A stretch of DNA of 19,461 bases from positions 1 through 19,461 of IMG/VR virus record IMGVR_UViG_2671180427_000015; one strand, written 5' to 3'. Both the position numbers and the translations under genes were made by a program. Positions 1 to 15,277 of the stretch are shown piece after piece (within the stretch, counting starts at the first letter, position 1; the number at the start of each line of letters is the position of its first letter). Under the pieces are notes generated by a model. It ran no database searches, had not been told where the DNA came from, and saw nothing but the letters and a program-made list of their open reading frames with translations. The DNA comes from a virus (lineage: Duplodnaviria > Heunggongvirae > Uroviricota > Caudoviricetes).

Positions 1-159
1 CACATCACCTTCTGCTGCAATCGCCTGCATCAGGGTATAAGGGGTTATGGCCACCGGACTACCAAACGGCTGCCAGCCCTCTTTCAGTTTGTGTGTCAGC
101 TTTTCCGCAAGATCTGACGGCGACGCCGCCCTGACAACATCATAATGTTTAATCGACAT
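1..159 (-). CDS. Hypothetical prophage late-region protein, 5' part only (53 codons; runs off the window start)
   Basis: Minus-strand ATG at 157..159 preceded by GGGAGAA Shine-Dalgarno; open to window edge; translation MSIKHYDVVRAASPSDLAEKLTHKLKEGWQPFGSPVAITPYTLMQAIAAEGDV. Not in the ORF track because it is incomplete. Confidence 0.5.
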   Translation of the reverse strand, partial: MSIKHYDVVRAASPSDLAEKLTHKLKEGWQPFGSPVAITPYTLMQAIAAEGDV

Positions 160-702
160 CGAATTTCTCCCGTGTACAGGAACAGAGTTAAAAAGCCGGA
201 ACCGGAATCAAATCACAGGATGACCATCTGCCAGTGGCAGGTCATAAAAAAAAGGCCGCGCCATGCGCAGCCAGAACTCACAAGGAAAATGATAGAAGGA
301 AATAACATTAGTGATGTACGCATGGCGCCTCCCGCTAAGTTCTGCAATGATCAAACAGAACTCGCTACGTGCCCTTAAAACTCGATCATTTAGCCCCTCC
401 AAGGAGGATTCACCATGCGGTTGGTTTTTTAATAAACAGTAAACAAAAAAGTCAAGAATTATTCATTCTGTTCTTTCATCATCGGCCACAGCAATACCAC
501 AATGCCGCAGACCAGAGCGCCATCAGTCAGTACCAACATTATCCTGCTGGTGAAATCCATCATCACCATCACTAAAAGCAGGATCACAACAGCAAGCAGA
601 CACAGTTTATAAAACAATGTTCAGAAAACGCATTCAGCATGCCTAAGGTTCTATTCCTACGAATAGCCAACTTGCAACTTAAAATATTATTTATGCAGCC
701 AA

Positions 703-1461
703 TTAAATTCTGGTCCTTACAATATCAACCTGAAGATTCTTATCTTGTGCTGATTGATAAATCACAAACCTTTTACTACCTGCATTGAAAGAAGTAGACA
801 AAACCAGACAATTATCATAACGAGCAAGAACATAATACCAACCATCATTATAATTAATCATTTCATATTCTTTCTTAAACTGTGGTTTGTAATATCCTGT
901 CAGAAATGAAAAAAGCCAGAAATATGCCACAAAAGCAATCATCACAATCTCAAAAAAATGTTTTTTTATAAATGGCTTATCATAGAAGCATGATACCGAT
1001 AAAAATCGCCCATAAGATCTTATCGAAATTGTAACCGCCAGCGCAATCGCTGCTGACAGTAGCAAAAGAGGTACCTGAATCTTCTGTCTCAATATAGAAA
1101 ACTCAATAATTGCCGGCACAAACAATAATTCCACAGCAAAATAAAGGCGAAATACATTTAGCTCTTGCATAGAATGTTTTCTTTTCACTGCGAAAAAGAA
1201 TACAACACCAATACCCCAACCGATAAGAAATATAGCAATGACGATAACTGCAAAAAATAAACTTCTGGCAACATCATCAACACCTGCACCTACAATCCAC
1301 CATGGGAAGCCGTAGTAAAAAGAAGTACCCCATCCATAGAAATAAGCACTCCCCCATCCAAGGCATCCCATGTAGGCAATAAAAAGTGAAGAACTCCTGA
1401 GCAGCGCACCATCCTTCATAACCACCCCAATACAAGATGATAACATTGGCTTACAACTCAT
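703..1461 (-). CDS. Polytopic inner-membrane protein of unknown function (about 5 hydrophobic helices plus a ~60-aa soluble C-terminal tail); moron in the late operon
   Basis: 252-aa ORF in markedly AT-rich DNA just downstream of Q/pR' on the same strand; several long hydrophobic stretches (e.g. LFFAVIVIAIFLIGWGIGVVFFFAV, FFEIVMIAFVAYFWLFSFL). No clear Shine-Dalgarno at the first ATG; true start may be an internal Met (e.g. MKDGALL). Confidence 0.55.
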   Translation of the reverse strand: MSCKPMLSSCIGVVMKDGALLRSSSLFIAYMGCLGWGSAYFYGWGTSFYYGFPWWIVGAGVDDVARSLFFAVIVIAIFLIGWGIGVVFFFAVKRKHSMQELNVFRLYFAVELLFVPAIIEFSILRQKIQVPLLLLSAAIALAVTISIRSYGRFLSVSCFYDKPFIKKHFFEIVMIAFVAYFWLFSFLTGYYKPQFKKEYEMINYNDGWYYVLARYDNCLVLSTSFNAGSKRFVIYQSAQDKNLQVDIVRTRI

Positions 1462-1627
1462 AACAAAAGCAATTCAATGCCGTCAAGAGGTTACAGGCTA
1501 AAAAAACTCTATTACATTGCAGTCAGCATGTTTACTACACAAATACAATTCAGAGCATAAAAACTACTCGGCGGCAGGTTATTGAGACTCATCAATGACA
1601 TGTAAAAAACGCCCATTATTGGTGTCA

Positions 1628-1656
1628 AGTTTCCCCAAAGTTATTCAAAAAGTCAA
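1628..1656 (-). promoter_or_regulatory. pR'-like late promoter with Q-utilisation region
   Basis: Minus strand reads TTGACT-17 nt-GAAACT then TTGACACCAATAATGGGCG, collinear with my recollection of lambda pR' (TTGACT...TAAATT TTGACTCAACGATGGG); lies 40 nt downstream of the Q stop. The -10 hexamer is degenerate. Confidence 0.45.
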
Positions 1657-1698
1657 TATTATGCCGTTAATATGTTGCCATCCGTGGCAATCATGGCG

Positions 1699-2322
1699 CT
1701 AACGTGTGATCGCATTCAAAATGTTGTCTGCGATTGACTCTTCCTTGTGGCATTGCACAACCAGAGCGTCATACAGCGGCTTAACAGTGCGTGACCAGGT
1801 GGGTTGGGTAAGGTTTGGGATTAGCATCGTCACAGCGCGATATGCGGCGCTTGCTGGCATTCTTGAATAACCGACGCCTTTACATCTTCCGCACTCTTTC
1901 TCAGCAACTATCCCCCACTGCTCTGTTTTGGCTATATCAACCGCACGGCCTGTACCGTGGCAATCTCTGCATCTTGCGCCCGGCGTAGCGGCACTACGGC
2001 AATAATCCGCATAAGCGAATGTTGCGAGCACTTGCAGTACCTTTGCCTTAGTATTTCCTTCAAGCTTTGCCACGCCACGGTATTTCCCCGATACCTTGTG
2101 TGCAAATTGCATCAGATAGTTGATAGCCTTTTGTTTGTCGTTCTGGCTGAGTTCGTGCTTACCACAGAATACAGCCATTCCGAATCCGGCTTGTGATTGC
2201 GCCATCCCCATAGCAGCCATCACATCAGTACCGGAAAGAGAGTCAGAAGCCGTGGCCCGTGGTGAGTCGCTCATCATCGGGCTTTTTGGCGAATGAAATT
2301 TAGCTACGCTTTCGAGTCTCAT
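1699..2322 (-). CDS. Q: Late-gene antiterminator Q
   Basis: 207-aa translation matches recalled lambda Q over its length; sits immediately upstream of the pR'-like promoter and overlaps the ninI stop by 4 nt. Confidence 0.9.
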
Positions 2323-2984
2323 GCGCCTTCTCCCTGTACCTGAATCAATGTGAGATTTCCGCAGAACACTGCCCCAGTATCGATATACATCTGGTTGGCA
2401 AATTTGAGTGGTTTCACTGCTGGCGTATGACCAAAGATAAACGTGTCCGCGCCTTTAATTTCTTTAACGATCCCGTCTTGTGAGTTGCTGATTCGTTCGC
2501 GGTTCCAGATTACCTGCTGATGATCAACTGGCTTTCCAAATTCGTATTCGTCACAAGGATAATCGGCGTGGCAGATGACATATTTTTTACCTTTGCTCAC
2601 CAGTTCGATGATTAACGGAAGTTCTTCTGCTTTATGGGCAAGAGCTTTAGCCAGAATTTCTTTGTCGTAATCGAGATTAAAGAACCAGCCACCGCCATTA
2701 AGCAGCCAGTGATTAACGTTTCCACGCTCTGATAAGCCATCAATCATCATTTGCTCATGGTTTCCACGTACAGCTCTGAACCAGGGGAATGTGATTAATT
2801 CCAGGCATTCAACGTTCTCTGCACCACGATCAACCAAATCGCCCACCGAGATAAGCAGGTCTTTTTTGTTGTCGAATCCAATCGTATCCAGTTTGTTCAT
2901 CAGGTTCGTGTAGCATCCGTGCAGATCGCCAACTACCCAAATATTTCGGTATTTGCTGCCATCAATTCTTTCGTAGATATTCAT
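2319..2984 (-). CDS. ninI: NinI (Nin221) Ser/Thr protein phosphatase
   Basis: 221 aa; PPP-family metallophosphatase motifs visible in translation (GDLHG, GDLVDRG, GNHE); matches recalled lambda NinI. Confidence 0.9.
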
Positions 2985-3595
2985 GCAGCCTCACTTCTGC
3001 TGTTTCGCAGTTTTTTAAGTTTCTGTTGATACTCCGCCTTGATGGTCCTGCACTCTTCGACAGTCCAGCGATGGCGGTTATGGTTTGATTCGATTTCGTC
3101 TACTGCTTCCTGCCCGATGCGGCTAATCAGTTCGACGCGATACGGAACGAGATTTCCGCTTTTGTGCTGGTTGCACACCACGCATTGCTTGTGAATATTG
3201 CGTTCATCAAATCGGAGTTGAGGTGCCGCAGCAGTTGTCCGGTAATGTCCGGCATCCCACTGAGCAGACGTGAGCGTTCCGCACGAGATACATGGTAAGT
3301 CGCGGTCTCTTTCTCTGATGAAGGCGTTTACGGCTTGTTGGGCTTGTTTAATCCAGTAACTGCGGGGCTTTAAGGCGAGTTTTCGAATCTTAAGTTTATC
3401 TTTCTGTTTCTGCTCCTCTCGTCGTCGTTTCTTCTCTGCTGCTTTTTCCGCTTTTTCGCGTTCTTTACTTCGTCGTTCGAGTGCTATCTTGGTTCCACAC
3501 TCTGGAGAGCACCACCACTGATTAGCGAATGCAGGGTGAAACCATTCCCGACATTCATCGTTTTTACATCGTCTTCGCGCTGGTTTAGCCATCAT
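2981..3595 (-). CDS. ninG: NinG (Rap) recombination-associated structure-specific endonuclease
   Basis: 204 aa, Cys-rich N-terminus and lysine/glutamate-rich linker; matches recalled lambda NinG. Directly abuts ninI, so lambda ninH is absent. Confidence 0.9.
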
Positions 3596-3755
3596 CTTCT
3601 TCCTCGTGCATCGAGCTATTCGAATCGCTCATCAGCTCTGCACAGCAGTGCTCACACACGTGAACTTCCAGCACATGCAGCTTCTGACCGCAATTAGCGC
3701 ACGTTAAAGCCCGCTCGACGCTTTCTTGTTCGTAACTTCGATTTGGGTCAATCAC
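3585..3755 (-). CDS. ninF: NinF-like small protein
   Basis: Translation ...[37 protein letters not shown]... matches recalled lambda NinF. Start placed at GTG 3753..3755 (GAGGA 8 nt upstream, GTGA overlap with ninE stop); the longer ORF to 3797 is the alternative. Confidence 0.65.
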
Positions 3756-3934
3756 CTTGTATTCCTCGCACGATGTCTTAGCCACCGGATATCCCACAGG
3801 TGAGCCGTGTAGTTGAAGGTTTTTACGTCAGATTCTTTTGGGATTGGCTTGCGTTTATTTCTGGAGCGTTTCGTTGGAAGGTATTTGCAGTTTTCGCAGA
3901 TTATGTCGGTGATGCTTCGTCGCTGTCGTCTCAT
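3752..3934 (-). CDS. ninE: NinE-like protein
   Basis: 60-aa translation [60 protein letters not shown] matches recalled lambda NinE; start chosen inside the 90-aa track ORF, overlapping the methyltransferase stop. Confidence 0.8.
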
Positions 3935-4458
3935 GCAGCCCTCCTGACGCCCTGCCCGATCGCCATCAATGCCGCTTTGGATACGGTAGTAAACATCCGT
4001 CGAGGACTGATGAACGGTCGCCAAATCAGCAGCATGGAGCCTTTGCTGTTTCCCTTCTTCTCCAGCCCTGTCGATGGTTCGATAAAATTAATCCGTCCAT
4101 CAGTGATAATACGAACTTCGTCAACACTCTCCAGAGCCTTGCTGAACCATCCGACAGACATATCCTCTGGCACAAGCATCACTACCGTCTGTCGCTGTTG
4201 TATACACTGCTCAGCGGCTTTTTCCACCCACGGCCTGATATTGCTGTACGGTGGGTTATTCCAGATTGCACCGTGGCTTACCCACTCAGAATTGAGCGCG
4301 TCGTCGTCCTCAGTTAGCCAGTGAGCGCACAGAGCGTTTTTGTCGCTCGCTGCCGAATCCAGCCAGAATCCAAACTCAATATCCAGTGCATCAAAAAGCC
4401 AAAGCGGCGTTTGCCAGCAGTCCTTGTCGTGTGCTGGCGTATTTGATTTGATAGTCAT
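3931..4458 (-). CDS. Orphan phage Dam-like DNA N6-adenine methyltransferase (occupies the lambda ninC/ninD position)
   Basis: Translation contains the N6-adenine MTase catalytic motif NPPY ([10 protein letters not shown]) and a WQTPxxLF-type N-terminal motif; start at ATG 4456..4458 in an ATGA overlap with the ninB stop. Confidence 0.7.
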
Positions 4459-4895
4459 GCAGCCCGATCTCCCCATCGCGCTTTCCATTCGAGAGCCAGT
4501 CGCGCTTCGTCTGACCACTTAACGCCACGCTCTGTACCGAATGCCTGTATAAGCTCTAATAGCTCCGCAAATTCGCTTACACGCATCCTGCTGGTTGACT
4601 GGCCTATTACCACAAAGCCATTCCCGGCAAGGTTAGGAACAACATCCTGCTGCTTTAATGCTGCGGTAAACACACACTTCCAGCTTTCTGCATCCAGCCA
4701 GCGACCATGCCATTCAACCTGACGAGAGACGTCACCTAAGCAGGCCCATAGCTTCCTGTTTTGGTCTAAGCTGCGGTTGCGTTCCTGAATGGTTACTACG
4801 ATTGGTTTGGTTGGGTCTGGAAGGATTTGCTGTACTGCGTGAATAGCGTTTTGCTGATGTGCCGGAGATCGAATTTCAAAGGTTAGTTTTTTCAT
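4455..4895 (-). CDS. ninB: NinB (Orf) recombination mediator
   Basis: 146 aa from MKKLTFEIRSPAHQQ..., matching recalled lambda NinB; GGAGAGGG Shine-Dalgarno upstream; the track ORF begins 6 codons earlier. Confidence 0.85.
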   Translation of the reverse strand: MKKLTFEIRSPAHQQNAIHAVQQILPDPTKPIVVTIQERNRSLDQNRKLWACLGDVSRQVEWHGRWLDAESWKCVFTAALKQQDVVPNLAGNGFVVIGQSTSRMRVSEFAELLELIQAFGTERGVKWSDEARLALEWKARWGDRAA

Positions 4896-4901
4896 GACTT
4901 C

Positions 4902-4932
4902 CCTCTCCCCCAAATAAAAAGGCCTGCGATTA
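4902..4932 (-). terminator. Intrinsic terminator, tR2-like, between ren and ninB
   Basis: On the minus strand a GC-rich 7-8 bp stem (GGCCTGC/GCAGGCC, loop GGTAATC) followed by TTTTTATTT. Confidence 0.6.
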
Positions 4933-4968
4933 CCTGCAGGCCTGTGATTAGCTCAGTGATGTAGATGG

Positions 4969-5259
4969 TCATCTTTTAACTCCATATACCGCCAATATCC
5001 GTTTCATCGTGGCACTCTGGCGACACTCCTTAAAAATCAGGTTCGTGCTCATCTTTCCTTCCCGTTCTTCCTTGGTAGCAAACCGGTAATACACCGTTCG
5101 CCAGACCTTACCTTCGATAACCAGAAGACCTGCCCGTGCCATTTTAGCCGCGGCCTGATTTATGCTGGTTACTGTTGCGCCTGTTAGCGCGGCAACGTCC
5201 GGCGCACAGAAGCTATTATGCGTCCCCAGGTAATGAATAATTGCCTCTTTGCCCGTCAT
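4969..5259 (-). CDS. ren: Ren
   Basis: 96-aa translation matches recalled lambda Ren; positioned between P and tR2/ninB. Confidence 0.85.
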   Translation of the reverse strand: MTGKEAIIHYLGTHNSFCAPDVAALTGATVTSINQAAAKMARAGLLVIEGKVWRTVYYRFATKEEREGKMSTNLIFKECRQSATMKRILAVYGVKR

Positions 5260-5957
5260 ACACTTGCTCCTTTCAGTCCGAACTTAGCTTTAATTTCTGC
5301 GATCTTCGCCAGCGCCTGAACACGATTTAGAGGTCTGCCGCCCATGACAGGAAGTTGTTTTATTGGTTCAGGTATCGTCTCACCACGGTTAATTCGCGCT
5401 GTCATACAGGTCAGTTCATCGGCAGCCTTGCGTCGTAATTCCGCGTCAGTCAGCGCATTGGCCCGCATGTTCTGGTACAGGTTGGTAACCAGCCAGTAGT
5501 GCGCGTTCGATTTCCACGGATAAGACTCTGCATCCGGATACAGGCCTCGCTTCCGGCAATACTCGTAAACCATATCAACCAGCTCGCTGACGTTTGGCAG
5601 TCCGGCGATAACGGATGCTTCTTCCCGGCACCATGCAACAAACTGCCCGGGTGATGGCAGAAATGGTCGATTCTGCCGACGGGCTACGCGCATTCCTGCG
5701 TTAACCTGTTCCATTGTGGTGATCCCGTTTTCCCGGAAAGCCAGAACCCACTGGCGGCGGATTTCGTTCAGTTCGTTCTGGTCACGGTTAGCCAGGCTCG
5801 CCGGGAAAGTTGCCAGTAACTGGCTGAACACACCGTTGATGATCTGCGCTACCTGCTGTACCTGAGGCTTTTCGTCGTACTGTTCCGGCATGTTGTTGGC
5901 GATCCGACGCATCTGCTCACGGTCAAAGTTAACCATCTGTGCGGCGATGTTTTTCAT
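5256..5957 (-). CDS. P: Replication protein P (DnaB helicase loader)
   Basis: 233-aa translation matches recalled lambda P; 4-nt overlap with O stop. Confidence 0.9.
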   Translation of the reverse strand: MKNIAAQMVNFDREQMRRIANNMPEQYDEKPQVQQVAQIINGVFSQLLATFPASLANRDQNELNEIRRQWVLAFRENGITTMEQVNAGMRVARRQNRPFLPSPGQFVAWCREEASVIAGLPNVSELVDMVYEYCRKRGLYPDAESYPWKSNAHYWLVTNLYQNMRANALTDAELRRKAADELTCMTARINRGETIPEPIKQLPVMGGRPLNRVQALAKIAEIKAKFGLKGASV

Positions 5958-6853
5958 AAATCCACCCCGTAAATCCAGTCAGTGTTTGTCAGGTCGAGTT
6001 TTGGTTTGCAGGCTGTCACGCCTGCCTGTTGCTTGTTACGGTTGATTTCGAGCTGGGTCCACTTGTCGCGGAGTTTGGCCGGGCTCAGCACGTTACCGGA
6101 CCAGAAGTTGTCCTGGCATGCCCAGCGGAACAGTACACACATGTCGCGATGGTTACGTCCGTCACGTTCACGCATCAGGCGGATATCGTTAGCCCACCCT
6201 GCAAAATTCGGTTTTCTGGCTGATGGCGCGATGGTCTTCACCATGTCAAACATCCACTCTGCGGCGGTCAGATCTTCTGCTGTCCCCCACCTGCTGCCGC
6301 TCTGAATTGCAGCATCTGGTTTCTCCACAGAAAGATCGTTTTCTGGCTGGTCAGAGGATTCGCCTGAATTCTCTGACGAATAATCTTTTCTTTTTTCTTT
6401 TGTAATAGTGTCTTTTGTGTCCCCCTGTTTTGAGGGATAGCAATCCCTCAATTTGAGGGATGTTTTATCCCTCGTTTTAGGGGATTTTCCCTCGTTTTGA
6501 GGGATACACCATTCTGAGATGTTTTTATTTGGTCCAAACATGCCGCCTTGCTGCTTGATAATATTCATTCTGACGAGTTCTAACTTGGCTTCATTGCACC
6601 GTTTGACGGGTAACTTTGTAATCTCGCTAAGTTGAGAATCGGTGATTCTGTCCATTGGTTTATTCCACCCATAGGTTTTACGCAGAATGGCAAGCAGCAC
6701 TTTAAACTGTCGCTTGGTCAGATCTGCGCCTGAATAAGCCTCAAGCAGCATATTTGATAGTCTGACGTAACCATCATCGAGATCTGCCACATTACGCTCC
6801 TGTTCGGCAAAGTTACCTCTGCCGAAGTTGAGTATTTTTGCTATATTTGTCAT
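5954..6853 (-). CDS. O: Replication initiator O
   Basis: 299-aa translation matches recalled lambda O; contains ori iterons internally. Confidence 0.9.
   Translation of the reverse strand: MTNIAKILNFGRGNFAEQERNVADLDDGYVRLSNMLLEAYSGADLTKRQFKVLLAILRKTYGWNKPMDRITDSQLSEITKLPVKRCNEAKLELVRMNIIKQQGGMFGPNKNISEWCIPQNEGKSPKTRDKTSLKLRDCYPSKQGDTKDTITKEKRKDYSSENSGESSDQPENDLSVEKPDAAIQSGSRWGTAEDLTAAEWMFDMVKTIAPSARKPNFAGWANDIRLMRERDGRNHRDMCVLFRWACQDNFWSGNVLSPAKLRDKWTQLEINRNKQQAGVTACKPKLDLTNTDWIYGVDL
6379..6506. repeat. Origin of replication (ori lambda type): four iterons plus adjacent AT-rich segment inside the O gene
   Basis: Four tandem ~20-bp units each containing an inverted TCCCTC...GAGGGA pair between about 6418 and 6506, flanked at 6379..6417 by a T-rich stretch (TCTTTTCTTTTTTCTTTTGTAATAG). 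Confidence 0.8.
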
Positions 6854-6885
6854 AATGACTCCTGTGGATTGATCCAGTAATTCCC

Positions 6886-7182
6886 TCAGAATTGCATATC
6901 AATTTGCTTAAAATCCTCGGTGGCAGCCGGGGATTTTTTCTTTGTGATTTCATCAAGCGCATACTTAAAAGCCCTGCTAATCGGACTGATGTCTGATGCC
7001 ATTCCGAAAGCACACAAGACCGAAGCAATAAATCTCCAGTCCGTTCTGCTTATCTTCGATTCATGACAGCCAATCATCTTTGCCAAACCGCGCTGTGTAA
7101 GCGTTGATAGGTTGATGAGTAAATCTGTTTCTGCGCGATCAACGTCACGCTGTGATAGTTTGCTGTAACTTGTTCGTTCCAT
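6886..7182 (-). CDS. CII-family lysogeny transcriptional activator (not the lambda allele)
   Basis: 98 aa; C-terminal ...KKKSPAATEDFKQIDMQF resembles lambda CII C-terminus (...KKRPAATERSEQIQMEF); located directly downstream of cro and nutR. Confidence 0.7.
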   Translation of the reverse strand: MERTSYSKLSQRDVDRAETDLLINLSTLTQRGLAKMIGCHESKISRTDWRFIASVLCAFGMASDISPISRAFKYALDEITKKKSPAATEDFKQIDMQF

Positions 7183-7268
7183 TTCTTAATATTTCCAATA
7201 GTGAATTGTTAGTTGACAGGTATGCGTGGAAACGCATATGGCCTTAGTTGGTCAGATATCTTGGGACT

Positions 7269-7313
7269 CGCTTTTCAGCGACGTAGGACGAATGTCCGTT
7301 GTTACAAAGAGCG
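7269..7313 (-). promoter_or_regulatory. nutR-like N-utilisation site (boxA plus boxB hairpin)
   Basis: Minus strand reads CGCTCTTTGTAACAA (boxA-like) then, 18 nt later, CGCTGAAAAGCG (short stem with GAAAA-containing loop), between cro and cII. Confidence 0.5.
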
Positions 7314-7323
7314 GCTCCGCTTA

Positions 7324-7539
7324 TTAAGCGGCTTTGTGTTCCGGCGGGAACACGTCATCAAGACTTACTTTTGCGCCTAACTTGTTTAGGCACGCAACAA
7401 GAGCACGGCATGTTTTAAGGTCTGGGAAGCGACGACCAGATTCCCAATGTCCGATAGCTCCCTGTGTGCATCCAACTGCTTTAGCAAGTTTCGTTTGAGA
7501 GATATTCAGTGACTCTCGATATTTTCGTAGGTTGCTCAT
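7324..7539 (-). CDS. cro: Cro-like HTH repressor (not the lambda allele)
   Basis: 71 aa from internal Met (MSNLRKYRESLNISQTKLAKAVGCTQGAIGHW...) with GGAGGA Shine-Dalgarno at 7543..7548; divergent from cI across an operator region. The 128-aa track ORF would overlap the operators and cI. Confidence 0.75.
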   Translation of the reverse strand: MSNLRKYRESLNISQTKLAKAVGCTQGAIGHWESGRRFPDLKTCRALVACLNKLGAKVSLDDVFPPEHKAA

Positions 7540-7570
7540 ATGTCCTCCGTAGTAACCACGAATAAAAAAA

Positions 7571-7639
7571 TACAATATGTACTCACCAAACACAAGTAAA
7601 AATACATATTGTGCATGGATGGTTCCAGTACAGAGCGTA
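7571..7639. promoter_or_regulatory. Right operator/promoter region (candidate OR sites with divergent pR and pRM)
   Basis: Three related 11-bp elements of form TAC-N5-GT(A/G): TACAATATGTA (7571..7581), TACATATTGTG (7603..7613), TACAGAGCGTA (7629..7639), lying between divergent cro and cI starts. Confidence 0.5.
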
Positions 7640-7656
7640 ATAATAAGGATATGAAA

Positions 7657-8310
7657 ATGAAATGGTATGAACTGGCTAGATCCAGAATGAAAGAGCTCGG
7701 CATAACTCAAGAGAAGTTAGCCGAAGAGCTAGGTATGACGCAGGGTGGAATTGGACACTGGTTGCGCGGATCTCGTCATCCATCTCTTAGTGATATTGGT
7801 GTGGTGTTTAAATACCTTGGTATTGATAACATATCATTCAACCACGACGGGACATTTTCACCTGTTGGCGAATACTCATCGGCCCCAGTTAAAAAACAAT
7901 ATGAGTACCCTGTTTTTTCTCATGTTCAGGCTGGGATGTTCTCTCCAGAACTCAGAACCTTTACCAAAGGCGATGCGGAGAGATTGGTAGGCACAACCAA
8001 AAAAGCCAGTGACTCTGCATTCTGGCTTGAGGTTGAAGGTAACTCAATGACCGCACCAACAGGTTCCAAACCTAGTTTTCCTGACGGGATGTTAATTCTG
8101 GTTGACCCTGAGCAAGCTGTTGAGCCCGGCGATTTCTGCATAGCCAGACTTGGTGGTGATGAATTTACCTTCAAGAAACTGATCAGGGATAGCGGTCAGG
8201 TGTTTCTACAGCCACTAAACCCACAATACCCAATGATCCCATGCAATGAGAGTTGTTCCGTTGTTGGGAAAGTTATCGCTAGTCAGTGGCCTGAAGAGAC
8301 GTTTGGGTGA
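7657..8310 (+). CDS. cI: CI prophage repressor, mosaic: non-lambda N-terminal HTH domain fused to lambda-type S24 (LexA-like) C-terminal domain
   Basis: C-terminal ~130 aa ([19 protein letters not shown]...EVEGNSM...FKKL...[12 protein letters not shown]) matches recalled lambda CI; N-terminal ~85 aa is unrelated to lambda CI. Start placed at ATG 7657 (AAGGA 7 nt upstream); the track ORF starts at 7609. Confidence 0.85.
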
Positions 8311-8380
8311 TGAAGGGCTAAATGTCTCCTAATAAAAACAGCAATCATTTGAAATTATTAATAATTATAGAGGTTTAGTC

Positions 8381-9379
8381 TTGGAAATCAGCACGGCGGT
8401 TATTCATTCCGAAGAAGATGCTTTGCGTTTTGTTGAGATGTACATCGCTGGGCAAGATCTTCCTGATGGAATATCATTTGAAGGGTGGCCTAACTTAACC
8501 TTCCGTCTTACTGGTGACAAATTTCATGGCAGTTTGACTCCTTCTGTCATGAAGGGTTTTGTTGAAATGCAGGCCCAAATAAACCGAGCTTATGCATTGT
8601 TAAAGTACGGAGTTCCTGACCCAAGAAAGCTTTCAAAAGAAGAGAAGGAAGCTATCGAAATTCAGGTGAATGTTGAGAATGGCTCGTCCTTGATAGAAGT
8701 TAATATGGATGGGTTCATGGGTGAGGTTATACAAACTGCGGTGAGTAAAGTGGGCCCTCAAGAGATCGTTATTACAGTTTTAGGGGTCGCTCTTATATGG
8801 GGCGGCGTCGTCCTATTCAAAAAATACCTAGAAGACCGCAAAGAGATTCGCATGGCAGAAGTAAAAAGCGAGTCTGAGCGTGAACACCTTGCGACCATGC
8901 GCTTCATGTCTGAGCAGGAAACAAAACGAAGTGAATTATTGACTCAGATTATTAGCGAAAAACCCAAGCTAGACAACATGGAAAGACTTGCTCATGACGC
9001 AAAAACCGACATAGTTAAATCATTTGTCAAGGCTGATACAGCTCAGATTGATGGCGTTGTATTGGATGCAGATCTATCCAAAACCCTCACTACAAATGCA
9101 AGGCGGAAATCAATGGAGATCCGCCTTGATGGAAATTATCGCATTGAAAAGGTTGACTCCACTGATCCAGAGAGCTTCAAAGTGCAAGTGAGAAATGTTG
9201 ATTCCGATCTAAGAATATCGTGCATAGTACAAGATGTTTTTCTCGACGCATCCGAGCATAAAAAAGCTCTTCAGCAAGCTGAGTGGGATAGAAAACCAGT
9301 TCATTTGTCAATCAACGCAAAAGAACTAGATGGTGAAATAAAGTCCGCGATAATACTTTATGTCAAAGAGATAACATAA
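8381..9379 (+). CDS. Immunity-region cargo protein of unknown function with one central hydrophobic helix (in the position lambda uses for rexA-rexB)
   Basis: 332-aa ORF with TTG start 7 nt after AGAGG; AT-rich; 70 nt downstream of cI on the same strand and followed by an intrinsic terminator; hydrophobic segment IVITVLGVALIWGGVVLF mid-protein; no similarity to RexA/RexB that I can recognise. Confidence 0.6.
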   Translation: MEISTAVIHSEEDALRFVEMYIAGQDLPDGISFEGWPNLTFRLTGDKFHGSLTPSVMKGFVEMQAQINRAYALLKYGVPDPRKLSKEEKEAIEIQVNVENGSSLIEVNMDGFMGEVIQTAVSKVGPQEIVITVLGVALIWGGVVLFKKYLEDRKEIRMAEVKSESEREHLATMRFMSEQETKRSELLTQIISEKPKLDNMERLAHDAKTDIVKSFVKADTAQIDGVVLDADLSKTLTTNARRKSMEIRLDGNYRIEKVDSTDPESFKVQVRNVDSDLRISCIVQDVFLDASEHKKALQQAEWDRKPVHLSINAKELDGEIKSAIILYVKEIT

Positions 9380-9386
9380 TCCTCAT

Positions 9387-9412
9387 CCCGGCCTCAGCGC
9401 CGGGTTTTCTTT
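9387..9412 (+). terminator. Intrinsic terminator ending the cI-cargo transcription unit
   Basis: CCCGGC-CTCAGC-GCCGGG hairpin followed by TTTTCTTT, 8 nt after the ORF stop. Confidence 0.6.
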
Positions 9413-9601
9413 GCCTCACGATCGCTTCACCTAAAAACACATAACCAATTGTATTTATTTGAAAATAAATAGATACAACTCACTAAACCACGCAATTCTG
9501 ATCTCTCCTTACATCGCCGAGGCAATACACCCATGCTAAAAAACAATACTATTAAATACAAAGCGTTGTAAAAAACCACCTCGTTTTAAGAACAAATTGT
9601 A

Positions 9602-9630
9602 TTGATAAAGCAAAATACATATCGTACTAT
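9602..9630 (+). promoter_or_regulatory. pL-like promoter with overlapping operator
   Basis: TTGATA -17 nt- TACTAT; the element TACATATCGTA (9616..9626) matches the OR-type TAC-N5-GTA sites and overlaps the spacer/-10. Confidence 0.45.
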
Positions 9631-9676
9631 TTAACCATCAGCAGGACGCTGGAAGCCAAACGGAACAAACTGGCAG

Positions 9677-9722
9677 GCTCTTTAAACAACGTCGAACTCT
9701 CGACTACGTGGCTGAAAAGCCA
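9677..9722 (+). promoter_or_regulatory. nutL-like site (boxA plus boxB hairpin)
   Basis: GCTCTTTAAACAA (boxA-like) followed 19 nt later by TGGCTGAAAAGCCA (4-bp stem, TGAAAA loop), upstream of N. Confidence 0.5.
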
Positions 9723-9819
9723 GATCACCCAACCACATGAGCTGTGGGATGCAATGCCGAAGCAACCGTCTAGGAGTAGCTTCGAGATTGCATCGCCAAA
9801 GTTTATTCGGGAGGAATCT

Positions 9820-10092
9820 ATGTCCAGAAAAACAGAATTTAAAGGCACCGCAGCTTCTCGCCGTAGAGCTCGTCGCGCAAATCTGCAAAGTCAGGAGGCG
9901 ATTAGCTCCGACAAACTACACAGGCCAACCCCCTCACGAGTGGTCTTGCAATGCAAACGCAAACCAGCAATGAGAGCAGAAGTAATAACACTGACAACGT
10001 TGACCAGAAAATATGAAGGCTCAACTTGTCTTCCAAATGTAGCTCTTTACGCGGCAGGCTACAGGAAATCAAAACAACTGACAGCAAGGTGA
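9820..10092 (+). CDS. N: N-like transcription antiterminator (arginine-rich motif; not lambda N)
   Basis: 90 aa from ATG 9820 (GGGAGG upstream); N-terminal arginine-rich motif GTAASRRRARRANLQ; first gene after pL/nutL. C-terminus resembles what I recall of the P22 gene 24 product, but that recollection is unverified. Confidence 0.7.
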   Translation: MSRKTEFKGTAASRRRARRANLQSQEAISSDKLHRPTPSRVVLQCKRKPAMRAEVITLTTLTRKYEGSTCLPNVALYAAGYRKSKQLTAR

Positions 10093-10150
10093 CTTGTGTT
10101 GATCGCCAGAAAATGAAATTAGGCATCAAACCACTTATTTGAGGTGATAT

Positions 10151-10237
10151 ATGGAAGAAGAATTTGAAGAGTTCGAAGAGCATCCTCAGGATGTGATGGA
10201 ACAATACCAGGACTATCCTTATGACTACGACTATTGA
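10151..10237 (+). CDS. Small acidic protein, lambda orf28-like
   Basis: 28 codons (MEEEFEEFEEHPQDVMEQYQDYPYDYDY) with GAGGTG Shine-Dalgarno; overlaps the ral start as lambda orf28 does. Confidence 0.5.
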   Translation: MEEEFEEFEEHPQDVMEQYQDYPYDYDY

Positions 10238-10445
10238 TAAAAATCAATGGTGTGGACAATTCAAGCGATGCAATGGATGCAAGCTGCAATCGGAATGCAT
10301 GGTTAAGCCTGAAGAAATGTTTCCTGTAATGGAAGATGGGAAATATGTCGATAAATGGGCAATACGAACGACGGCAATGATTGCCAGAGAACTTGGTAAA
10401 CAGAACAACAAGGCTGCCTGGTGGTGGCCTTTATTTTTGGCATAA
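10221..10445 (+). CDS. ral: Ral restriction-alleviation protein
   Basis: First 66 aa match recalled lambda Ral (MTTTIDKNQWCGQFKRCNGCKLQSECM...); this ORF reads on for 8 more codons (WWWPLFLA) before the stop. Confidence 0.8.
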   Translation: MTTTIDKNQWCGQFKRCNGCKLQSECMVKPEEMFPVMEDGKYVDKWAIRTTAMIARELGKQNNKAAWWWPLFLA

Positions 10446-10603
10446 ACAACAGAATAAACACTGCACTGTGTATTCATTCCAACAAGTGAATACACGGAGC
10501 AATGTCGCTCGTAACCAAACAGGAGCCGACTTGTTCTGATTATTGGAAATCTTCTTTGCCCTCCAATATGAGGGCGATTTTTTATCTGTGAGGATATGAA
10601 CAG

Positions 10604-10972
10604 ATGTCAAACATCAAAAAATACATCATTGATTACGACTGGAAAGCATCAATAGAAATTGAAATCGACCATGACGTAATGACAGAGGAAAAACTTCACC
10701 AGATTAATAATTTCTGGTCAGACTCTGAATACCGACTCAATAAACACGGCTCTGTATTAAATGCTGTATTAATCATGCTGGCGCAACATGCTCTGCTTAT
10801 AGCAATTTCAAGCGACTTAAATGCATATGGTGTTGTGTGTGAGTTCGACTGGAATGATGGAAATGGTCAGGAAGGATGGCCTCCAATGGATGGTAGTGAA
10901 GGAATAAGAATTACCGATATCGATACATCAGAAATATTTGATTCAGATGATATGACTATCAAGGCCGCCTGA
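10604..10972 (+). CDS. ea10: Ea10 (Ssb)-like early protein
   Basis: 122-aa translation matches recalled lambda Ea10 in size, position (between ral and cIII) and sequence. Confidence 0.7.
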   Translation: MSNIKKYIIDYDWKASIEIEIDHDVMTEEKLHQINNFWSDSEYRLNKHGSVLNAVLIMLAQHALLIAISSDLNAYGVVCEFDWNDGNGQEGWPPMDGSEGIRITDIDTSEIFDSDDMTIKAA

Positions 10973-11044
10973 GCGCGGCGTTACCGCATACCAATTACGC
11001 TTCACTCGAGGCGTTTTTCGTTATGTATAAATAAGGAGCACACC

Positions 11045-11209
11045 ATGCAATATGCCATTGCAGGGTGGCCTGTTGCTGGCTGCCCTTCCGAATCTTTACT
11101 TGAACGAATCACCCGTAAATTACGTGACGGATGGAAACGCCTTATCGACATACTTAATCAGCCAGGAGTCCCAAAAAATGGATCAAACAATTATGGCTAT
11201 CCAGACTAA
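11045..11209 (+). CDS. cIII: CIII (FtsH/HflB protease inhibitor)
   Basis: 54-aa translation [54 protein letters not shown] with AAGGAG Shine-Dalgarno; not in the ORF track (<60 aa). Confidence 0.85.
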   Translation: MQYAIAGWPVAGCPSESLLERITRKLRDGWKRLIDILNQPGVPKNGSNNYGYPD

Positions 11210-11321
11210 ATTCACTATCGCCACTTTTATTGGCGATGAAAAGATGTTTCGTGAGGCCGTCGACGCTTATAAAAAATGGATATTAATACTGAAACTGAGA
11301 TCAAGCAAAAGCATTCACTAA
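11178..11321 (+). CDS. kil: Kil (host cell-division inhibitor)
   Basis: 47-aa translation [47 protein letters not shown], the in-frame 3' part of the 89-aa track ORF; overlaps the cIII 3' end as in lambda. Confidence 0.8.
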
Positions 11322-11396
11322 CCCCCTTTCCTGTTTTCCTAATCAGCCTGGCATTTCGCGGGCGATATTTTCACAGCCATTTTCAGGAGTTCAGCC

Positions 11397-11693
11397 ATGA
11401 ACGCTTATTACATTCAGGATCGTCTTGAGGCTCAGAGCTGGGCGCGTCACTACCAGCAGATCGCCCGTGAAGAGAAAGAGGCAGAACTGGCAGACGACAT
11501 GGAAAAAGGCCTGCCCCAGCACCTGTTTGAATCGCTATGCATCGATCATTTACAACGCCACGGGGCCAGCAAAAAAGCCATTACCCGTGCGTTTGATGAC
11601 GATGTTGAGTTTCAGGAGCGCATGGCAGAACACATCCGGTACATAGTTGAAACCATTGCTCACCATCAGGCTGATATTGATTCAGAGGTATAA
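11397..11693 (+). CDS. gam: Gam (RecBCD inhibitor)
   Basis: 98-aa translation matches recalled lambda GamS; CAGGAG Shine-Dalgarno. Confidence 0.9.
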
Positions 11694-11698
11694 AACGG

Positions 11699-12484
11699 AT
11701 GAGTACAGCACTCGCAACGCTGGCAGGGAAGCTGGCTGAACGTGTCGGCATGGATTCTGTCGACCCACAGGAACTGATCACCACTCTTCGCCAGACGGCA
11801 TTTAAAGGTGATGCCAGCGATGCGCAGTTCATCGCATTGCTGATCGTCGCCAACCAGTACGGCCTTAATCCGTGGACGAAAGAAATTTACGCCTTCCCTG
11901 ATAAGCAGAACGGCATTGTTCCGGTGGTGGGCGTTGATGGCTGGTCCCGCATCATCAATGAAAACCAGCAGTTTGATGGCATGGACTTTGAGCAGGACAA
12001 TGAATCCTGTACATGCCGGATTTACCGCAAGGACCGCAATCATCCGATCTGCGTTACCGAGTGGATGGATGAATGCCGCCGCGAACCATTCAAAACCCGC
12101 GAAAGCAGAGAAATCACGGGGCCGTGGCAGTCGCATCCCAAACGGATGTTACGGCATAAAGCCATGATTCAGTGTGCCCGTCTCGCCTTCGGATTTGCTG
12201 GTATCTATGACAAGGATGAAGCCGAGCGCATTGTCGAAAATACCGCATACACTGCAGAACGTCAGCCGGAACGCGACATCACTCCGGTTAACGATGAAAC
12301 CATGCAGGAGATTAACACTCTGCTGATTGCCCTGGATAAAACATGGGATGACGACTTATTGCCGCTCTGTTCCCAGATATTTCGCCGCGACATTCGCGCA
12401 TCGTCAGAACTGACACAGGCCGAAGCAGTGAAAGCTCTTGGATTCCTGAAACAGAAAGCCACTGAGCAGAAGGTGGCTGCATGA
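11699..12484 (+). CDS. bet: Bet (Red-beta single-strand annealing protein)
   Basis: 261-aa translation matches recalled lambda Bet throughout. Confidence 0.95.
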
Positions 12485-13161
12485 CACCGGACATTATCCT
12501 GCAGCGTACCGGAATCGACGTGAGAGCTGTCGAACAGGGGGATGATGCGTGGCACAAATTACGGCTCGGCGTCATCACCGCTTCAGAAGTTCACAATGTG
12601 ATAGCAAAGCCCCGCTCAGGAAAGAAGTGGCCTGACATGAAAATGTCCTACTTCCACACCCTGCTGGCTGAGGTTTGCACCGGTGTGGCTCCGGAAGTTA
12701 ATGCTAAGGCGCTGGCCTGGGGAAAACAGTACGAGAACGACGCCAGAGCCCTGTTTGAGTTCACTTCCGGCGTGAATGTTACTGAATCCCCGATCATCTA
12801 TCGCGACGAAAGTATGCGCACCGCCTGCTCTCCCGATGGTTTATGCAGTGACGGCAACGGCCTTGAACTGAAATGCCCGTTTACCTCCCGGGATTTCATG
12901 AAATTCCGGCTCGGTGGTTTCGAGGCCATAAAGTCGGCTTACATGGCCCAGGTGCAGTACAGCATGTGGGTAACGCGAAAAGATGCCTGGTACTTTGCCA
13001 ACTATGACCCACGAATGAAGCGTGAAGGCCTGCATTATGTCGTGGTTGAGCGGGATGAAAATTACATGGCGAGTTTTGACGAGATGGTGCCGGAGTTCAT
13101 CGAAAAAATGGACGAGGCACTGGCTGAAATTGGTTTTGCATTTGGGGAGCAATGGCGATGA
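12481..13161 (+). CDS. exo: Exo (Red-alpha 5'-3' exonuclease)
   Basis: 226-aa translation matches recalled lambda Exo; 4-nt overlap with bet. Confidence 0.95.
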
Positions 13162-13340
13162 AGCATCCTCACGATAATATCCGGGTAGGCACGATCACTT
13201 TCGTCTACTCCGTTACAAAGCGAGGCTGGGTATTTCCCGGCCTTTCTGTTATCCGAAATCCCCTGAAAGCACAGCGGCTGGCTGAGGAGATAAATAATAA
13301 ACGAGGGGCTGTATGCACAAAGCATCTCCTGTTGAGTTAA
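13158..13340 (+). CDS. orf60a: orf60a-like protein
   Basis: 60 aa from the second in-frame ATG (ATGA overlap with exo stop); matches recalled lambda orf60a. Confidence 0.6.
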
Positions 13341-13504
13341 GAACGAGCATTGAGATGGCACATAGCCTTGCTCAAATTGGAGTCAGGTTTGTGCCAATAC
13401 CAGTAGAAACAGACGAAGAATTTCATACGTTAGCCACATCCCTTTCACAAAAGCTGGAAATGATGGTGGCGAAAGCAGAAGCAGATGAGAGAGACCAGGT
13501 ATGA
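13313..13504 (+). CDS. orf63: orf63-like protein
   Basis: 63-aa ORF in the lambda orf63 position; sequence consistent with recollection. Confidence 0.6.
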   Translation: MHKASPVELRTSIEMAHSLAQIGVRFVPIPVETDEEFHTLATSLSQKLEMMVAKAEADERDQV

Positions 13505-13580
13505 CAACCACGGAATGCATTTTTCTGGCAGCGGGCTTCATATTCTGTGTGCTTATGCTTGCCGACATGGGACTTGTTCA

Positions 13581-13796
13581 ATGACACCTCAGCAGGAAAA
13601 CGCCCTTCGCAGCATTGCCCGTCAGGCTAATTCTGAAATCAAAAAAGCCAGACAGCAGTTTCCGGATAAAAACGTCGATGACATTTGCCGTAGCGTACTG
13701 AAGAAGCACCGCGAAACGGTAACGCTGATGGGATTCACACCGACTCATTTAAGCCTGGCAATCGGCATGTTAAACGGCGTCTTTAAGGAACGATGA
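13581..13796 (+). CDS. orf61: orf61-like protein
   Basis: 71 aa from MTPQQENALRSIARQANSEIKKARQQF...; placed at the internal ATG, which overlaps (ATGA) the stop of a 27-codon upstream ORF. Confidence 0.55.
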   Translation: MTPQQENALRSIARQANSEIKKARQQFPDKNVDDICRSVLKKHRETVTLMGFTPTHLSLAIGMLNGVFKER

Positions 13797-13817
13797 ACAT
13801 GAAAAGCAAAATCATCA

Positions 13818-13842
13818 GGGAGCTACAGGCTCCTTTTTTATT
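13818..13842 (+). terminator. Intrinsic terminator (tL-type) after orf61-like
   Basis: GGGAGC-TACAG-GCTCC(U) hairpin followed by TTTTTTATT. Confidence 0.55.
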
Positions 13843-13894
13843 ATTCGCATTCACCCTCAAGCGTATTAACCAACAATTCAGGGATTAATGGAAG

Positions 13895-14116
13895 ATGGCA
13901 GACATCATTGATTCAGCATCAGAAATTGAAGAATTACAGCGCAACACAGCAATAAAAATGCGCCGCCTGAACCACCAGGCTATATCTGCCACTCATTGTT
14001 GTGAGTGTGGCGATCCGATAGATGAACGAAGACGCCTGGTCGTTCAGGGTTGTCGGACTTGTGCAAGTTGCCAGGAGGATCTGGAGCTTATCAGTAAACA
14101 GAGAGGTTCGAAGTGA
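13895..14116 (+). CDS. TraR/DksA-family C4 zinc-finger protein
   Basis: 73 aa with two CxxC pairs (CCECG...CRTCASC) in the spacing typical of the TraR/DksA zinc finger. Confidence 0.65.
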   Translation: MADIIDSASEIEELQRNTAIKMRRLNHQAISATHCCECGDPIDERRRLVVQGCRTCASCQEDLELISKQRGSK

Positions 14117-14520
14117 GCGAAATTAACTCTCAGGCACTGCGTGAAGCGGCAGAGAAAGCCGGTGAAGATAAGTGGCAGGCTAAAAAAATAAATGGTGATT
14201 TTTTCGTTATTCGTCACGGTAGTTATACAAGACAGCATGGCTACACATCGTATCAACCCATTGCGGAGATTGATTGTAAGCCAGTCCGGGATTTTGTTGC
14301 CAAGGCTAATCCGGCTACCGTGCTGGAATTACTGGATGAACTGGAAGCAGCAAAAAAGCGCATTGCAGAACTGGAAGCGCGGGAAATACTGCTCCCGGAA
14401 CGTAGCAGCATGCTTCATCGAACAGATTTTCACGATGATTACCAAACGGTAATGGCATACAAAGTTTCTGAAGTCATCGATGCAATCCGCGCTACTGGCA
14501 TTCGCATCAAAGGAGAGTGA
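14113..14520 (+). CDS. Ea22-like protein (shorter than lambda Ea22)
   Basis: GTG start in a GTGA overlap with the upstream stop, GAGAGG Shine-Dalgarno; N-terminus MSEINSQALREAAEKA... and C-terminus ...GIRIKGE agree with recalled lambda Ea22 termini; central coiled-coil-like LELLDELEAAKKRIAELEARE. Confidence 0.6.
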   Translation: MSEINSQALREAAEKAGEDKWQAKKINGDFFVIRHGSYTRQHGYTSYQPIAEIDCKPVRDFVAKANPATVLELLDELEAAKKRIAELEAREILLPERSSMLHRTDFHDDYQTVMAYKVSEVIDAIRATGIRIKGE

Positions 14521-14521
14521 G

Positions 14522-15277
14522 ATGATTCACTACCACGGTGGGCCTATTACTCCTGATACGTGCGCAATGAGAGCATGGAAAGGGCGACATGCGTTTATCA
14601 GTTTTGCGCATTCAGGCCAGATCAATCTCGCGGCTGAATACTGTCAGTCGTTCGCGCTGGACAACGGTGCATTCACCGCCTGGAAAGCAGCTGGCAAAAA
14701 CAAAATCGACTGGAGCGATTACTACGAGTTTGTTGCTCGCTGGAAGAATCACCCAGGATTCGATTTTGCCATTATCCCGGATATTATTGATGGCGGAGAG
14801 GAGGAAAATGATGCGCTTCTGAATGAGTGGCCTCACGGAAAACTAGCTGGCGTTCCAGTGTGGCACATGAATGAAAGTGACGCGCGATTTATTCATTTGT
14901 GCAATGAGTTTCCGCGAGTGGCTATCGGTAGTTGTGGCGACTATGACGTAAAGCGCCCAACTCTTGCGGTAGCCAGAATGAAAGACCTGATTCGTCACAT
15001 TGTTGATGGGCATGGTCAGCCGGTTACGAAACTACATGGATTGCGCATGTTAAATCCGCTGATATTCACAAAATTACCCTTAGCCAGCGCAGATAGTACG
15101 AACGTCGCTCGAAACATCGGTATTGATAAAGCCTGGTCTGGGGCTTATGCACCTGCAAGTAAAGAGACACGCGCAGCATTAATGGTAGAACGGATTGAGG
15201 CACACAATAGCCCTGGTTCTCTTGCGTATTGTGAACAACGCGACCGCTTTGAAATGCAATTGCAACTAGCAGTTTAA
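14522..15277 (+). CDS. Candidate queuine tRNA-ribosyltransferase-fold protein (DpdA-like 7-deazaguanine DNA transglycosylase candidate)
   Basis: 251 aa from ATG 14522 (AGGAG 6 nt upstream). Five collinear segments resemble recalled E. coli Tgt motifs: LDNGAF (TDSGGF), FAIIPD (MIFDEC), VAIGS (YAVGG), LHGLRML (YLMGVG), ADSTNVARN (FDCVMPTRNARN). No zinc-binding C-terminal subdomain. Functional call unverified. Confidence 0.5.
   Translation: MIHYHGGPITPDTCAMRAWKGRHAFISFAHSGQINLAAEYCQSFALDNGAFTAWKAAGKNKIDWSDYYEFVARWKNHPGFDFAIIPDIIDGGEEENDALLNEWPHGKLAGVPVWHMNESDARFIHLCNEFPRVAIGSCGDYDVKRPTLAVARMKDLIRHIVDGHGQPVTKLHGLRMLNPLIFTKLPLASADSTNVARNIGIDKAWSGAYAPASKETRAALMVERIEAHNSPGSLAYCEQRDRFEMQLQLAV

Follow-up and report, generated by a model that had tools for sequence, protein, structure and literature searches.

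Genes and signals of the cargo region

We analysed positions 1 to 19,461 of a Caudoviricetes record, IMGVR_UViG_2671180427_000015 (the whole stretch of 19,461 nucleotides (nt) is called the window below), and focused on AT-rich DNA near its left end, where an original prediction made from the letters alone had placed a membrane-protein moron downstream of a lambda-like late promoter. This DNA is a two-gene AT-rich cargo cassette, or moron, between a lambda-type pR' and nanS-p, at the position that stxAB holds in Shiga toxin (Stx) phages. Its larger gene belongs to the family TfpB (Pfam PF27470) and its smaller gene to DUF3927. Listed in the direction of transcription, the features that define the locus are as follows.

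1699..2322, minus strand: lambda-type antiterminator Q (Pfam PF03589 Antiterm, 4e-58), upstream of the cassette
1615..1656, minus strand: lambda-like late promoter pR' and qut region (alignment with lambda 44.4-44.8 kb)
1556..1580, minus strand: decayed relic of a 434-type upstream terminator (aligned with 2982-3007 of the extracted phage 434 locus)
1457..1486, minus strand: candidate sigma-70 promoter of the cassette (-35 TTGACG at 1486-1481; 18-nt spacer with TG at 1465-1464; -10 TATGAG at 1462-1457)
1466-1437, minus strand: second candidate promoter, TTGTTA-18-TATCAT, found by scan and overlapping the first
703..1419, minus strand: TfpB-family (PF27470) inner-membrane protein of 238 amino acids (aa), with a maximal open reading frame (ORF) to 1461, five predicted transmembrane (TM) helices and a predicted C-terminal beta domain
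459..617, minus strand: DUF3927 or 'TciB-like' 52-aa peptide (Pfam PF13064, 3.4e-14; phrog_1470, 2.5e-17), with a TTG start as in RefSeq
246..272, minus strand: strong intrinsic terminator predicted by scan, an 8-bp G+C-rich stem followed by U8 (fold -15.2 kcal/mol, z -3.2)
1..159, minus strand: 5' end of a nanS-p-type esterase gene with a DUF1737 domain (Pfam, 4e-17), cut by the window edge

Followed along the minus strand, the first genes are NinG (3595-2981), a NinI-type phosphatase (2984-2319) and Q (2322-1699), all near the left end of the window, with the 3' end of Q aligning almost base for base with lambda Q. Beyond Q, the pR' hexamers could be read directly (-35 TTGACT at 1656-1651, -10-like GAAACT at 1633-1628), and by analogy with lambda the transcript would start near 1620. 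The pR'/qut region is also about 91% identical to the annotated pR'/qut sites of HK97-type phages. Likeness to lambda is nearly complete through pR'/qut and is lost about 10 nt past the presumed transcript start, bearing out the proposal that lambda-like sequence gives way to AT-rich DNA at this point. From there the 6S/tR' segment of lambda has been swapped for DNA matching wild-type phage 434; lambda itself runs from pR' through 6S/tR'/orf-64 to S only, and the cassette is not present. The downstream border of the cargo site is the nanS-p 5' end, which is 98.7% identical to the yjhS/nanS-p gene after stx1AB in Stx1a phages, where the order is Q ... stx1A-stx1B-yjhS-holin. This match, together with the comparison of the Q-to-S interval with lambda and 434, upholds the earlier placement of the AT-rich DNA at the Q-to-lysis moron site of Stx phages.

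Base composition likewise sets the insert apart, as had been proposed: the TfpB ORF has 36% G+C (30% at third codon positions) against 48% for Q to NinG and 47% for the whole window. The insert thus combines a location between sites that are adjacent in related phages with a deviating composition and a terminator of its own (a predicted hairpin), as expected of a moron. An equivalent place, after Q/pR' and ahead of nanS-p and the holin, is taken by stxAB and other Q-to-lysis cargo, and we compare the cassette with these and with the lambda morons bor and lom. All are unlike the phage backbone in composition, and for all of them expression would be expected from an own promoter and from late read-through. 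The window product differs in being an integral membrane protein rather than a secreted toxin (stxAB) or an outer-membrane protein, and it shares no sequence relation with them.

The larger gene is under purifying selection

An uninterrupted ORF spans 703..1461 on the minus (late-gene) strand and has more than 100 homologues. Within it, 703..1419 is a protein-coding gene under purifying selection and a chance ORF is excluded: the ratio of nonsynonymous to synonymous substitution (dN/dS) is 0.05-0.17 against close and distant copies, stays at about 0.1 even with dS above 1, and none of the eight compared copies contains a stop codon.

The original prediction gave this ORF correctly but counted 252 aa, and the length has to be shortened. 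In an alignment of nine homologues (39-100% identity; from prophages, plasmids and chromosomes), the ATG or GTG starts coincide with the window ATG at 1419, which a Shine-Dalgarno-like GGG motif precedes, and the 14 codons upstream of it are not conserved. The ATG at 1461 sits within the conserved promoter-like -10 element described below. On this comparison ATG 1419 is most likely the start, giving 238 aa and not 252; RefSeq and the phage 434 record begin the protein at an upstream ATG, in a 247-aa form.

Family assignment

The product had been described as matching nothing nameable, and here the description does not hold. Pfam PF27470 'TfpB' is the precomputed assignment on a 100%-identical protein and on all 103 of 103 first-round homologues, and the protein falls in phrog_1521 (2e-154), whose function label is unknown. 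The architecture shared by PF27470 is present as well: full-length alignments and an AlphaFold2 (AF2) model show about 230-260 aa with an aromatic/Gly motif near the N-terminus, several TM helices after it and a beta domain at the C-terminal end. The family is small: a profile search of 1.84 billion representative proteins returned only 72 matches. Named full-length members besides those of Enterobacterales come from Neisseria, Actinobacillus, Gallibacterium, Avibacterium and Pasteurella, with Klebsiella also represented, and the profile matches to the named Pasteurellaceae and Neisseria members range from 5e-41 to 2e-29. A genome scan adds Aggregatibacter, Glaesserella, Rodentibacter, Conchiformibius and four Moraxella species; for the M. 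bovis locus, tblastn gave E 1e-19 with 27% identity over residues 9-236.

Other searches of the protein were negative. Scans with the local Pfam-A copy, which predates PF27470, stayed below threshold for the protein and each of the 52 aligned members, as did an NCBIfam scan of the protein, and a PADLOC scan matched 0 families. Neither the single sequence nor a 52-sequence profile found a match below E = 2 among PDB sequences, and Foldseek of the model against PDB and BFVD gave no match at E <= 0.001; its weak matches at E ~1, which are non-significant, were the small beta domains of HIV integrase and the KorB C-terminus, and MscS. To judge from the gene order seen here, the Moraxella homologue is probably the classical tfpB ORF of the pilin inversion region, the presumed namesake of PF27470; Fulks et al. 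(1990) and Rozsa and Marrs (1991) are the older literature on that region. Literature on TfpB, TciB and DUF3927 produced name clashes or annotation labels only. One such clash is TfpB of Acinetobacter baylyi, a cytoplasmic PilB-like extension motor ATPase (PMC8213720) that has the name alone in common with our five-TM protein and is unrelated to it.

Predicted architecture

Modelling with AF2 on 26 close homologues gave a predicted local distance difference test score (pLDDT) of 58, too poor to use, and distant members were then added; with 52 family-spanning sequences the model reached pLDDT 79.8 and a predicted template modelling score (pTM) of 0.72. It places helices at 4-36, 47-78, 89-111, 116-136 and 155-181 and five strands between 184 and 235. 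Hydropathy agrees on five hydrophobic helices and a soluble C-terminal part of about 55-60 aa, so that the earlier description of about five helices with a short soluble tail is borne out by both approaches. Across the 52 sequences, net charge is +0.8 at the N-terminus, +1.9 in loop 2 (79-87) and +2.5 in loop 4 (134-154), compared with -1.3 in loop 1 (31-51) and +0.2 in loop 3 (111-115). This charge bias predicts a cytoplasmic N-terminus and a periplasmic C-terminal five-stranded beta domain of about 55 aa.

Conservation is strongest in TM1 and the loop that follows, with the motif AYxGxLGWGSAYFYGWGxSxYYGFPWW at the predicted periplasmic end of TM1, and then at G175 and Y195. Tyrosine is the sole polar residue type conserved across the family, whereas acidic, basic, histidine and serine residues all vary between members, and we infer from this pattern a binding or scaffolding protein and not an enzyme, although as a statement on function it is a hint.

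The DUF3927 gene and the downstream terminator

The interval 400..700, previously taken as non-coding, in fact holds a second gene at 459..617. Its product matches PF13064 with 53 bits (cut-off 25), residues 7-50 aligning to profile positions 7-49 of 53, and is a very hydrophobic 52-aa peptide with two hydrophobic stretches. The same gene is annotated in the records of phage 434, phage 2B8 and E. coli RefSeq; we observed an apparent TTG start and no obvious Shine-Dalgarno sequence. TciB of phage P1 belongs to the same Pfam and PHROG family, but the P1 gene sits with tciA and tciC, unlike the window gene. DUF3927 follows the TfpB gene only in its closest relatives, the 434-type lineage, and is absent from most lineages; we therefore rejected it as an obligate TfpB partner. 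A 41-aa ORF after the Salmonella family member showed no resemblance to DUF3927 on reading and no tblastn match.

The hairpin at 272-246 closes the cassette as the first terminator predicted downstream of pR', and it is conserved in 434, where a T.G wobble pair of the window stem is a T-A pair. It would act in effect as tR', with two membrane-protein genes carried in the 'leader' transcript. Around it, two overlapping small ORFs of 64 aa and 36 aa lie at 208-402 (minus strand), the shorter of which begins like a signal peptide behind a GGGAGG motif; over the equivalent of 208-402 a 62-aa 'membrane protein' is annotated in the record of phage 434. We rejected both ORFs as candidate genes on account of a 1-nt indel that shifts the frame relative to 434, the lack of a Pfam match and the terminator hairpin inside them; they are probably not genes.

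Transcription signals

Counting the pattern TTGACG-N14-16-TGnTAT, we found TTGACG-N15-TGnTAT (1486-1460) once in the window against 0.03 expected. Across 13 loci of three lineages (434-type, ETEC (enterotoxigenic E. coli) plasmid type and Q933-type prophage), whose coding sequences differ by dS above 1, the TTGACG-TGnTAT pattern is present a single time per locus, 41-44 nt ahead of the start codon. Such retention is the signature of a conserved promoter, and we treat the element as promoter-like and as a candidate only. Overlapping the TTGTTA-18-TATCAT pair, the sequence TTGTTATGAGTTGT at 1453-1466 (minus strand) fits the TTGYN6TTGY pattern that the annotators of 434 marked as a possible CII-binding site; the homologue on ETEC plasmids has not kept this TTGTN6TTGT box. 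CII-dependent expression of the cassette during lysogenisation is a possibility.

No intrinsic terminator was found by scanning from pR' to the ORF, in agreement with the original prediction, and none is predicted before 272-246. Phage 434 does carry one between its late promoter and the TfpB gene (-13.3 kcal/mol then U8, z -3.7), whereas in the aligned window sequence at 1556-1580 the stem is lost and no such hairpin remains. With this upstream terminator decayed, read-through from pR' into the cassette is expected, and by analogy with lambda-type late transcription pR' transcripts should cross both cassette genes even without Q. Analyses of 400-1700 with Rfam, for tRNAs and for leader folds detected no RNA element.

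Spread of the cassette and its closest relative

The closest relative is phage 434 (99.1% identity to the 1.3-kb region over 89% of the query), followed by phage 2B8 (98.5%), and these two are the only ones among 50,697 phage records to encode a TfpB-family protein. Of 5426 complete E. coli genomes, 682 (about 13%), many of them Shiga toxin-producing E. coli (STEC), contain 80% or more of the region, and it is 99.9% identical in many STEC chromosomes. In 434 the genes CPT_434_68 and CPT_434_69 (OL657226.1; RefSeq WP_001302581.1 and WP_000499454.1) lie on essentially the same DNA with the same gene order, downstream terminator and nanS-p neighbour. The two phages differ in what precedes the cassette, which in 434 follows a Q82-type antiterminator and an intact terminator and in the window follows a lambda-type Q/pR' and a decayed one. 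The 434 record places the region within the '434B nonhomology', where it is replaced in 434B, which suggests that the phage can do without it. The cassette is thus already catalogued (434 genome, RefSeq, Pfam PF27470, PHROG 1521) but uncharacterised, and is not a new element.

Genomic contexts of homologues

Homologues of the TfpB protein recur beside virulence and envelope genes on prophages, plasmids and chromosomes. On porcine ETEC plasmids a 59%-identical lineage lies upstream of eltAB (Enterotoxin_a/b) in divergent orientation, with STb and insertion sequence (IS) elements nearby; in the extracted loci the TfpB/eltAB stretch occupies 2987-5714, and the protein occurs in more than 1200 blocks of the assembly collection. 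Shigella has a 57%-identical copy, present on 106 plasmid records including pWR100 (pINV), one of which labels it 'TfpB protein'. The pWR100 copy is intact and sits in an IS-rich region (6001-6717 of the extracted locus), and about 550 nt downstream of it we noted a gene whose 134-aa, cysteine-rich product begins like a signal peptide and matches no Pfam family.

A 68%-identical homologue in a Q933-type prophage follows Q, a methylase and two tRNA genes and precedes lpxR, pmrD and nanS-p. The C. rodentium member is chromosomal and adjoins a frameshifted lpxR, and the Salmonella member, in the same chromosomal neighbourhood, adjoins sseJ. The lpxR gene (lipid A 3'-O-deacylase family) therefore stands beside a TfpB gene in both the Q933-type prophage and C. 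rodentium, and phage 434 has lpxR near its Q; lpxR and TfpB may be a recurring cargo pair, or may merely share an insertion hotspot.

The Salmonella gene, next to sseJ (STM1631), is taken to be STM1630, a 46%-identical member, a lone AT-rich gene with its own promoter that, unlike the window gene, is chromosomal and has no DUF3927 partner. STM1630 has been listed among genes co-regulated with Salmonella pathogenicity island 2 (SPI-2) (PMC2639726) and reported as a hypothetical protein expressed in 4/74 (10.1101/450098, 10.1101/689075), with its own -10 box in which two single-nucleotide polymorphisms (SNPs) silence the gene in ST313 (10.1101/689075).

Among the 51 loci examined, pilin genes adjoin a family member only in Moraxella, and pilin adjacency was accordingly rejected as a family trait. 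In M. bovis the homologue, of 261 aa, is flanked by two inverted pilin 3' segments; that of M. lacunata, which is frameshifted, stands between piv and the expressed pilin gene. In the M. lacunata NCTC10359 assembly the pilin/tfpB/piv region appears in both orientations on two contigs: in one, tfpB follows the expressed pilin gene and reads in the same direction, and in the other the two genes converge. Moraxella TfpB shares with the window protein its length class, its helix/beta layout and residues A15, A25-Y26, G37, P39, G175 and Y195. The settings differ, the Moraxella gene being in an invertible pilin segment beside piv, with expression probably tied to one pilin phase, and the window gene being prophage cargo with no pilin nearby. 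Further members have other neighbours: the one in Actinobacillus lies between a phosphotransferase system (PTS) gene and polysaccharide-synthesis genes, and other orphan members are on Rep3 plasmids.

The remainder of the window

Elsewhere in the window, 11032-11090 (plus strand) matches the Rfam Lambda_thermo element, the cIII thermoregulator, with 88.5 bits, indicating a lambda-like early-left operon that reads on the plus strand. At the right end (about 16973-19461, plus strand) a tyrosine integrase and ybhC are annotated over the aligned stretch in those E. coli chromosomes that match the window best; the plus-strand ORFs 16973-18043 and 18178 to the edge probably correspond to these two genes, which would put the prophage beside ybhC. 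Any single genome covers at most 79% of the window at one location, so the prophage is a mosaic.

Interpretation of the cassette

To bring these observations together, we propose that the cassette carries a TfpB-family membrane protein that is expressed in the lysogen and serves host adaptation. Transcription would come from the cassette's own sigma-70-like promoter 41 nt upstream of the start and from pR' read-through, ending at 272-246, so that the genes would be expressed in the lysogen and reach a high level once Q acts. The TfpB-family protein would then act at the periplasmic face of the inner membrane as a lysogenic-conversion or host-adaptation factor, its gene belonging to a horizontally acquired, AT-rich accessory pool that would travel with toxin, effector and lipid A remodelling genes. 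As a whole we consider this explanation somewhat better than an even bet, a judgement that mainly reflects those of its parts that were observed. The specific role, namely that the AT-rich accessory pool supplies here a factor for host adaptation or for the envelope, is put forward tentatively, as less likely than not. More ambitious, and improbable in that form, is the idea that TfpB is an unrecognised host-interaction factor shared across mucosal Proteobacteria, a single membrane protein accompanying the stx-site cargo, the ETEC eltAB operon, the Shigella invasion plasmid, the Salmonella sseJ locus and the Moraxella pilin switch, with one common periplasmic-face target and an effect on colonisation or on toxin/effector delivery; such a target might be helices of the pilin or pseudopilin type, or else a pathway of envelope stress or of lipid A remodelling.

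Several points weigh against the proposed role. Frameshifted or truncated TfpB-family copies are common in databases, so the gene is dispensable in many hosts, and some members have ordinary chromosomal contexts (Actinobacillus, Klebsiella electrica, Mangrovibacter). The association with virulence genes may come in part from over-sequenced pathogens and from AT-rich cargo piling up at the same sites. Identification of STM1630 as a family member follows from gene order and locus-tag numbering, not from sequence comparison; its deletion left macrophage replication unchanged (10.1101/689075), and the hypermotility seen in a screen (PMC4219756) was not among the confirmed phenotypes of the follow-up (PMC4534456). 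Topology and promoter, moreover, are predictions.

Of the functions suggested earlier, envelope modification or another lysogenic-conversion function fits the homologue contexts better than superinfection exclusion, and an envelope or host-adaptation role is our best guess. In the exclusion or defence reading, incoming phage DNA would be kept out, or infection aborted, by the membrane protein with or without the DUF3927 peptide, much as other inner-membrane proteins encoded by prophages act. In its favour, this is prophage cargo that is probably expressed in the lysogen (its promoter-like element is its own, and pR' is followed by no terminator) and that combines an inner-membrane location with a predicted periplasmic domain. 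The type IV pilus is a common phage receptor, and the Moraxella homologue is found in a type IV pilus locus. We nevertheless consider exclusion unlikely, because no PADLOC model and no Pfam, PHROG or NCBIfam exclusion family was matched, the gene occurs in just 2 of the 50,697 phage records, most members are outside prophages (by eltAB, by sseJ, on Shigella pINV, at the Actinobacillus PTS/polysaccharide site) and the Salmonella homologue is regulated with virulence genes (PMC2639726). A pilin or pseudopilin accessory that binds the hydrophobic N-terminal helices of type IV pilin-like proteins, modulating the pilus or type II secretion, would account for the M. bovis tfpB between two inverted pilin 3' segments, for the orientations of the M. 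lacunata gene relative to the expressed pilin, and for the ETEC homologue adjoining eltAB, given that the heat-labile toxin (eltAB) is exported by the type II secretion system. Pilin neighbours confined to Moraxella, where the M. lacunata copy is frameshifted, and the absence of pilus or secretion genes within about 5 kb in the examined prophage, Salmonella, Citrobacter, Shigella and Pasteurellaceae loci make this decidedly unlikely.

The two remaining readings deny the host any benefit or assign the gene to the lytic programme. A small membrane toxin module or a decaying passenger, persisting by hitch-hiking or by addiction through a hydrophobic peptide and a membrane protein, would be in keeping with the very hydrophobic products, with the many truncated or frameshifted database copies and with copies always lying in IS-rich or cargo regions, but it sits poorly with purifying selection that is strong even between deeply diverged copies (dN/dS about 0.1 where dS exceeds 1) and with the conserved promoter-like element, and the two genes are no obligate pair, as the DUF3927 partner is missing in most lineages; we rate it very unlikely. 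A holin, antiholin or other lysis accessory protein would have overturned the moron proposal, and the position of a late-strand membrane protein between Q and the lysis genes speaks for that assignment. Such proteins are small, with 1-4 TM segments, and are encoded beside the endolysin. The window protein, at 238 aa with five TM helices, matches no holin family in Pfam or PHROGs, and a separate class II holin, endolysin and Rz lie further downstream in 434, 2B8 and the E. coli relatives. Plasmids and chromosomes that lack lysis genes also harbour family members, 434B has other DNA in place of the region and lambda is without it, so that a lysis function fails on context and is extremely improbable. 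Neither lysis nor the production of virions involves the cassette.

Significance

What lends the cassette some value is its pattern of occurrence: a deeply conserved gene under purifying selection, for which we found no structural relatives, recurs at the stx position of prophages of the enterohaemorrhagic E. coli (EHEC) type, next to the operon for heat-labile toxin, on the virulence plasmid of Shigella, adjoining an SPI-2 effector gene in Salmonella and within the pilin inversion segment of Moraxella. This recurrence at virulence loci and the link to Moraxella are worth recording, even if they will not surprise specialists on lambdoid prophages. Should there be no common envelope or host-adaptation role, the cassette would be typical AT-rich prophage cargo; if such a role is true, it would offer a cheap and tractable target, being a single gene for which phage 434 lysogens could serve as the model.

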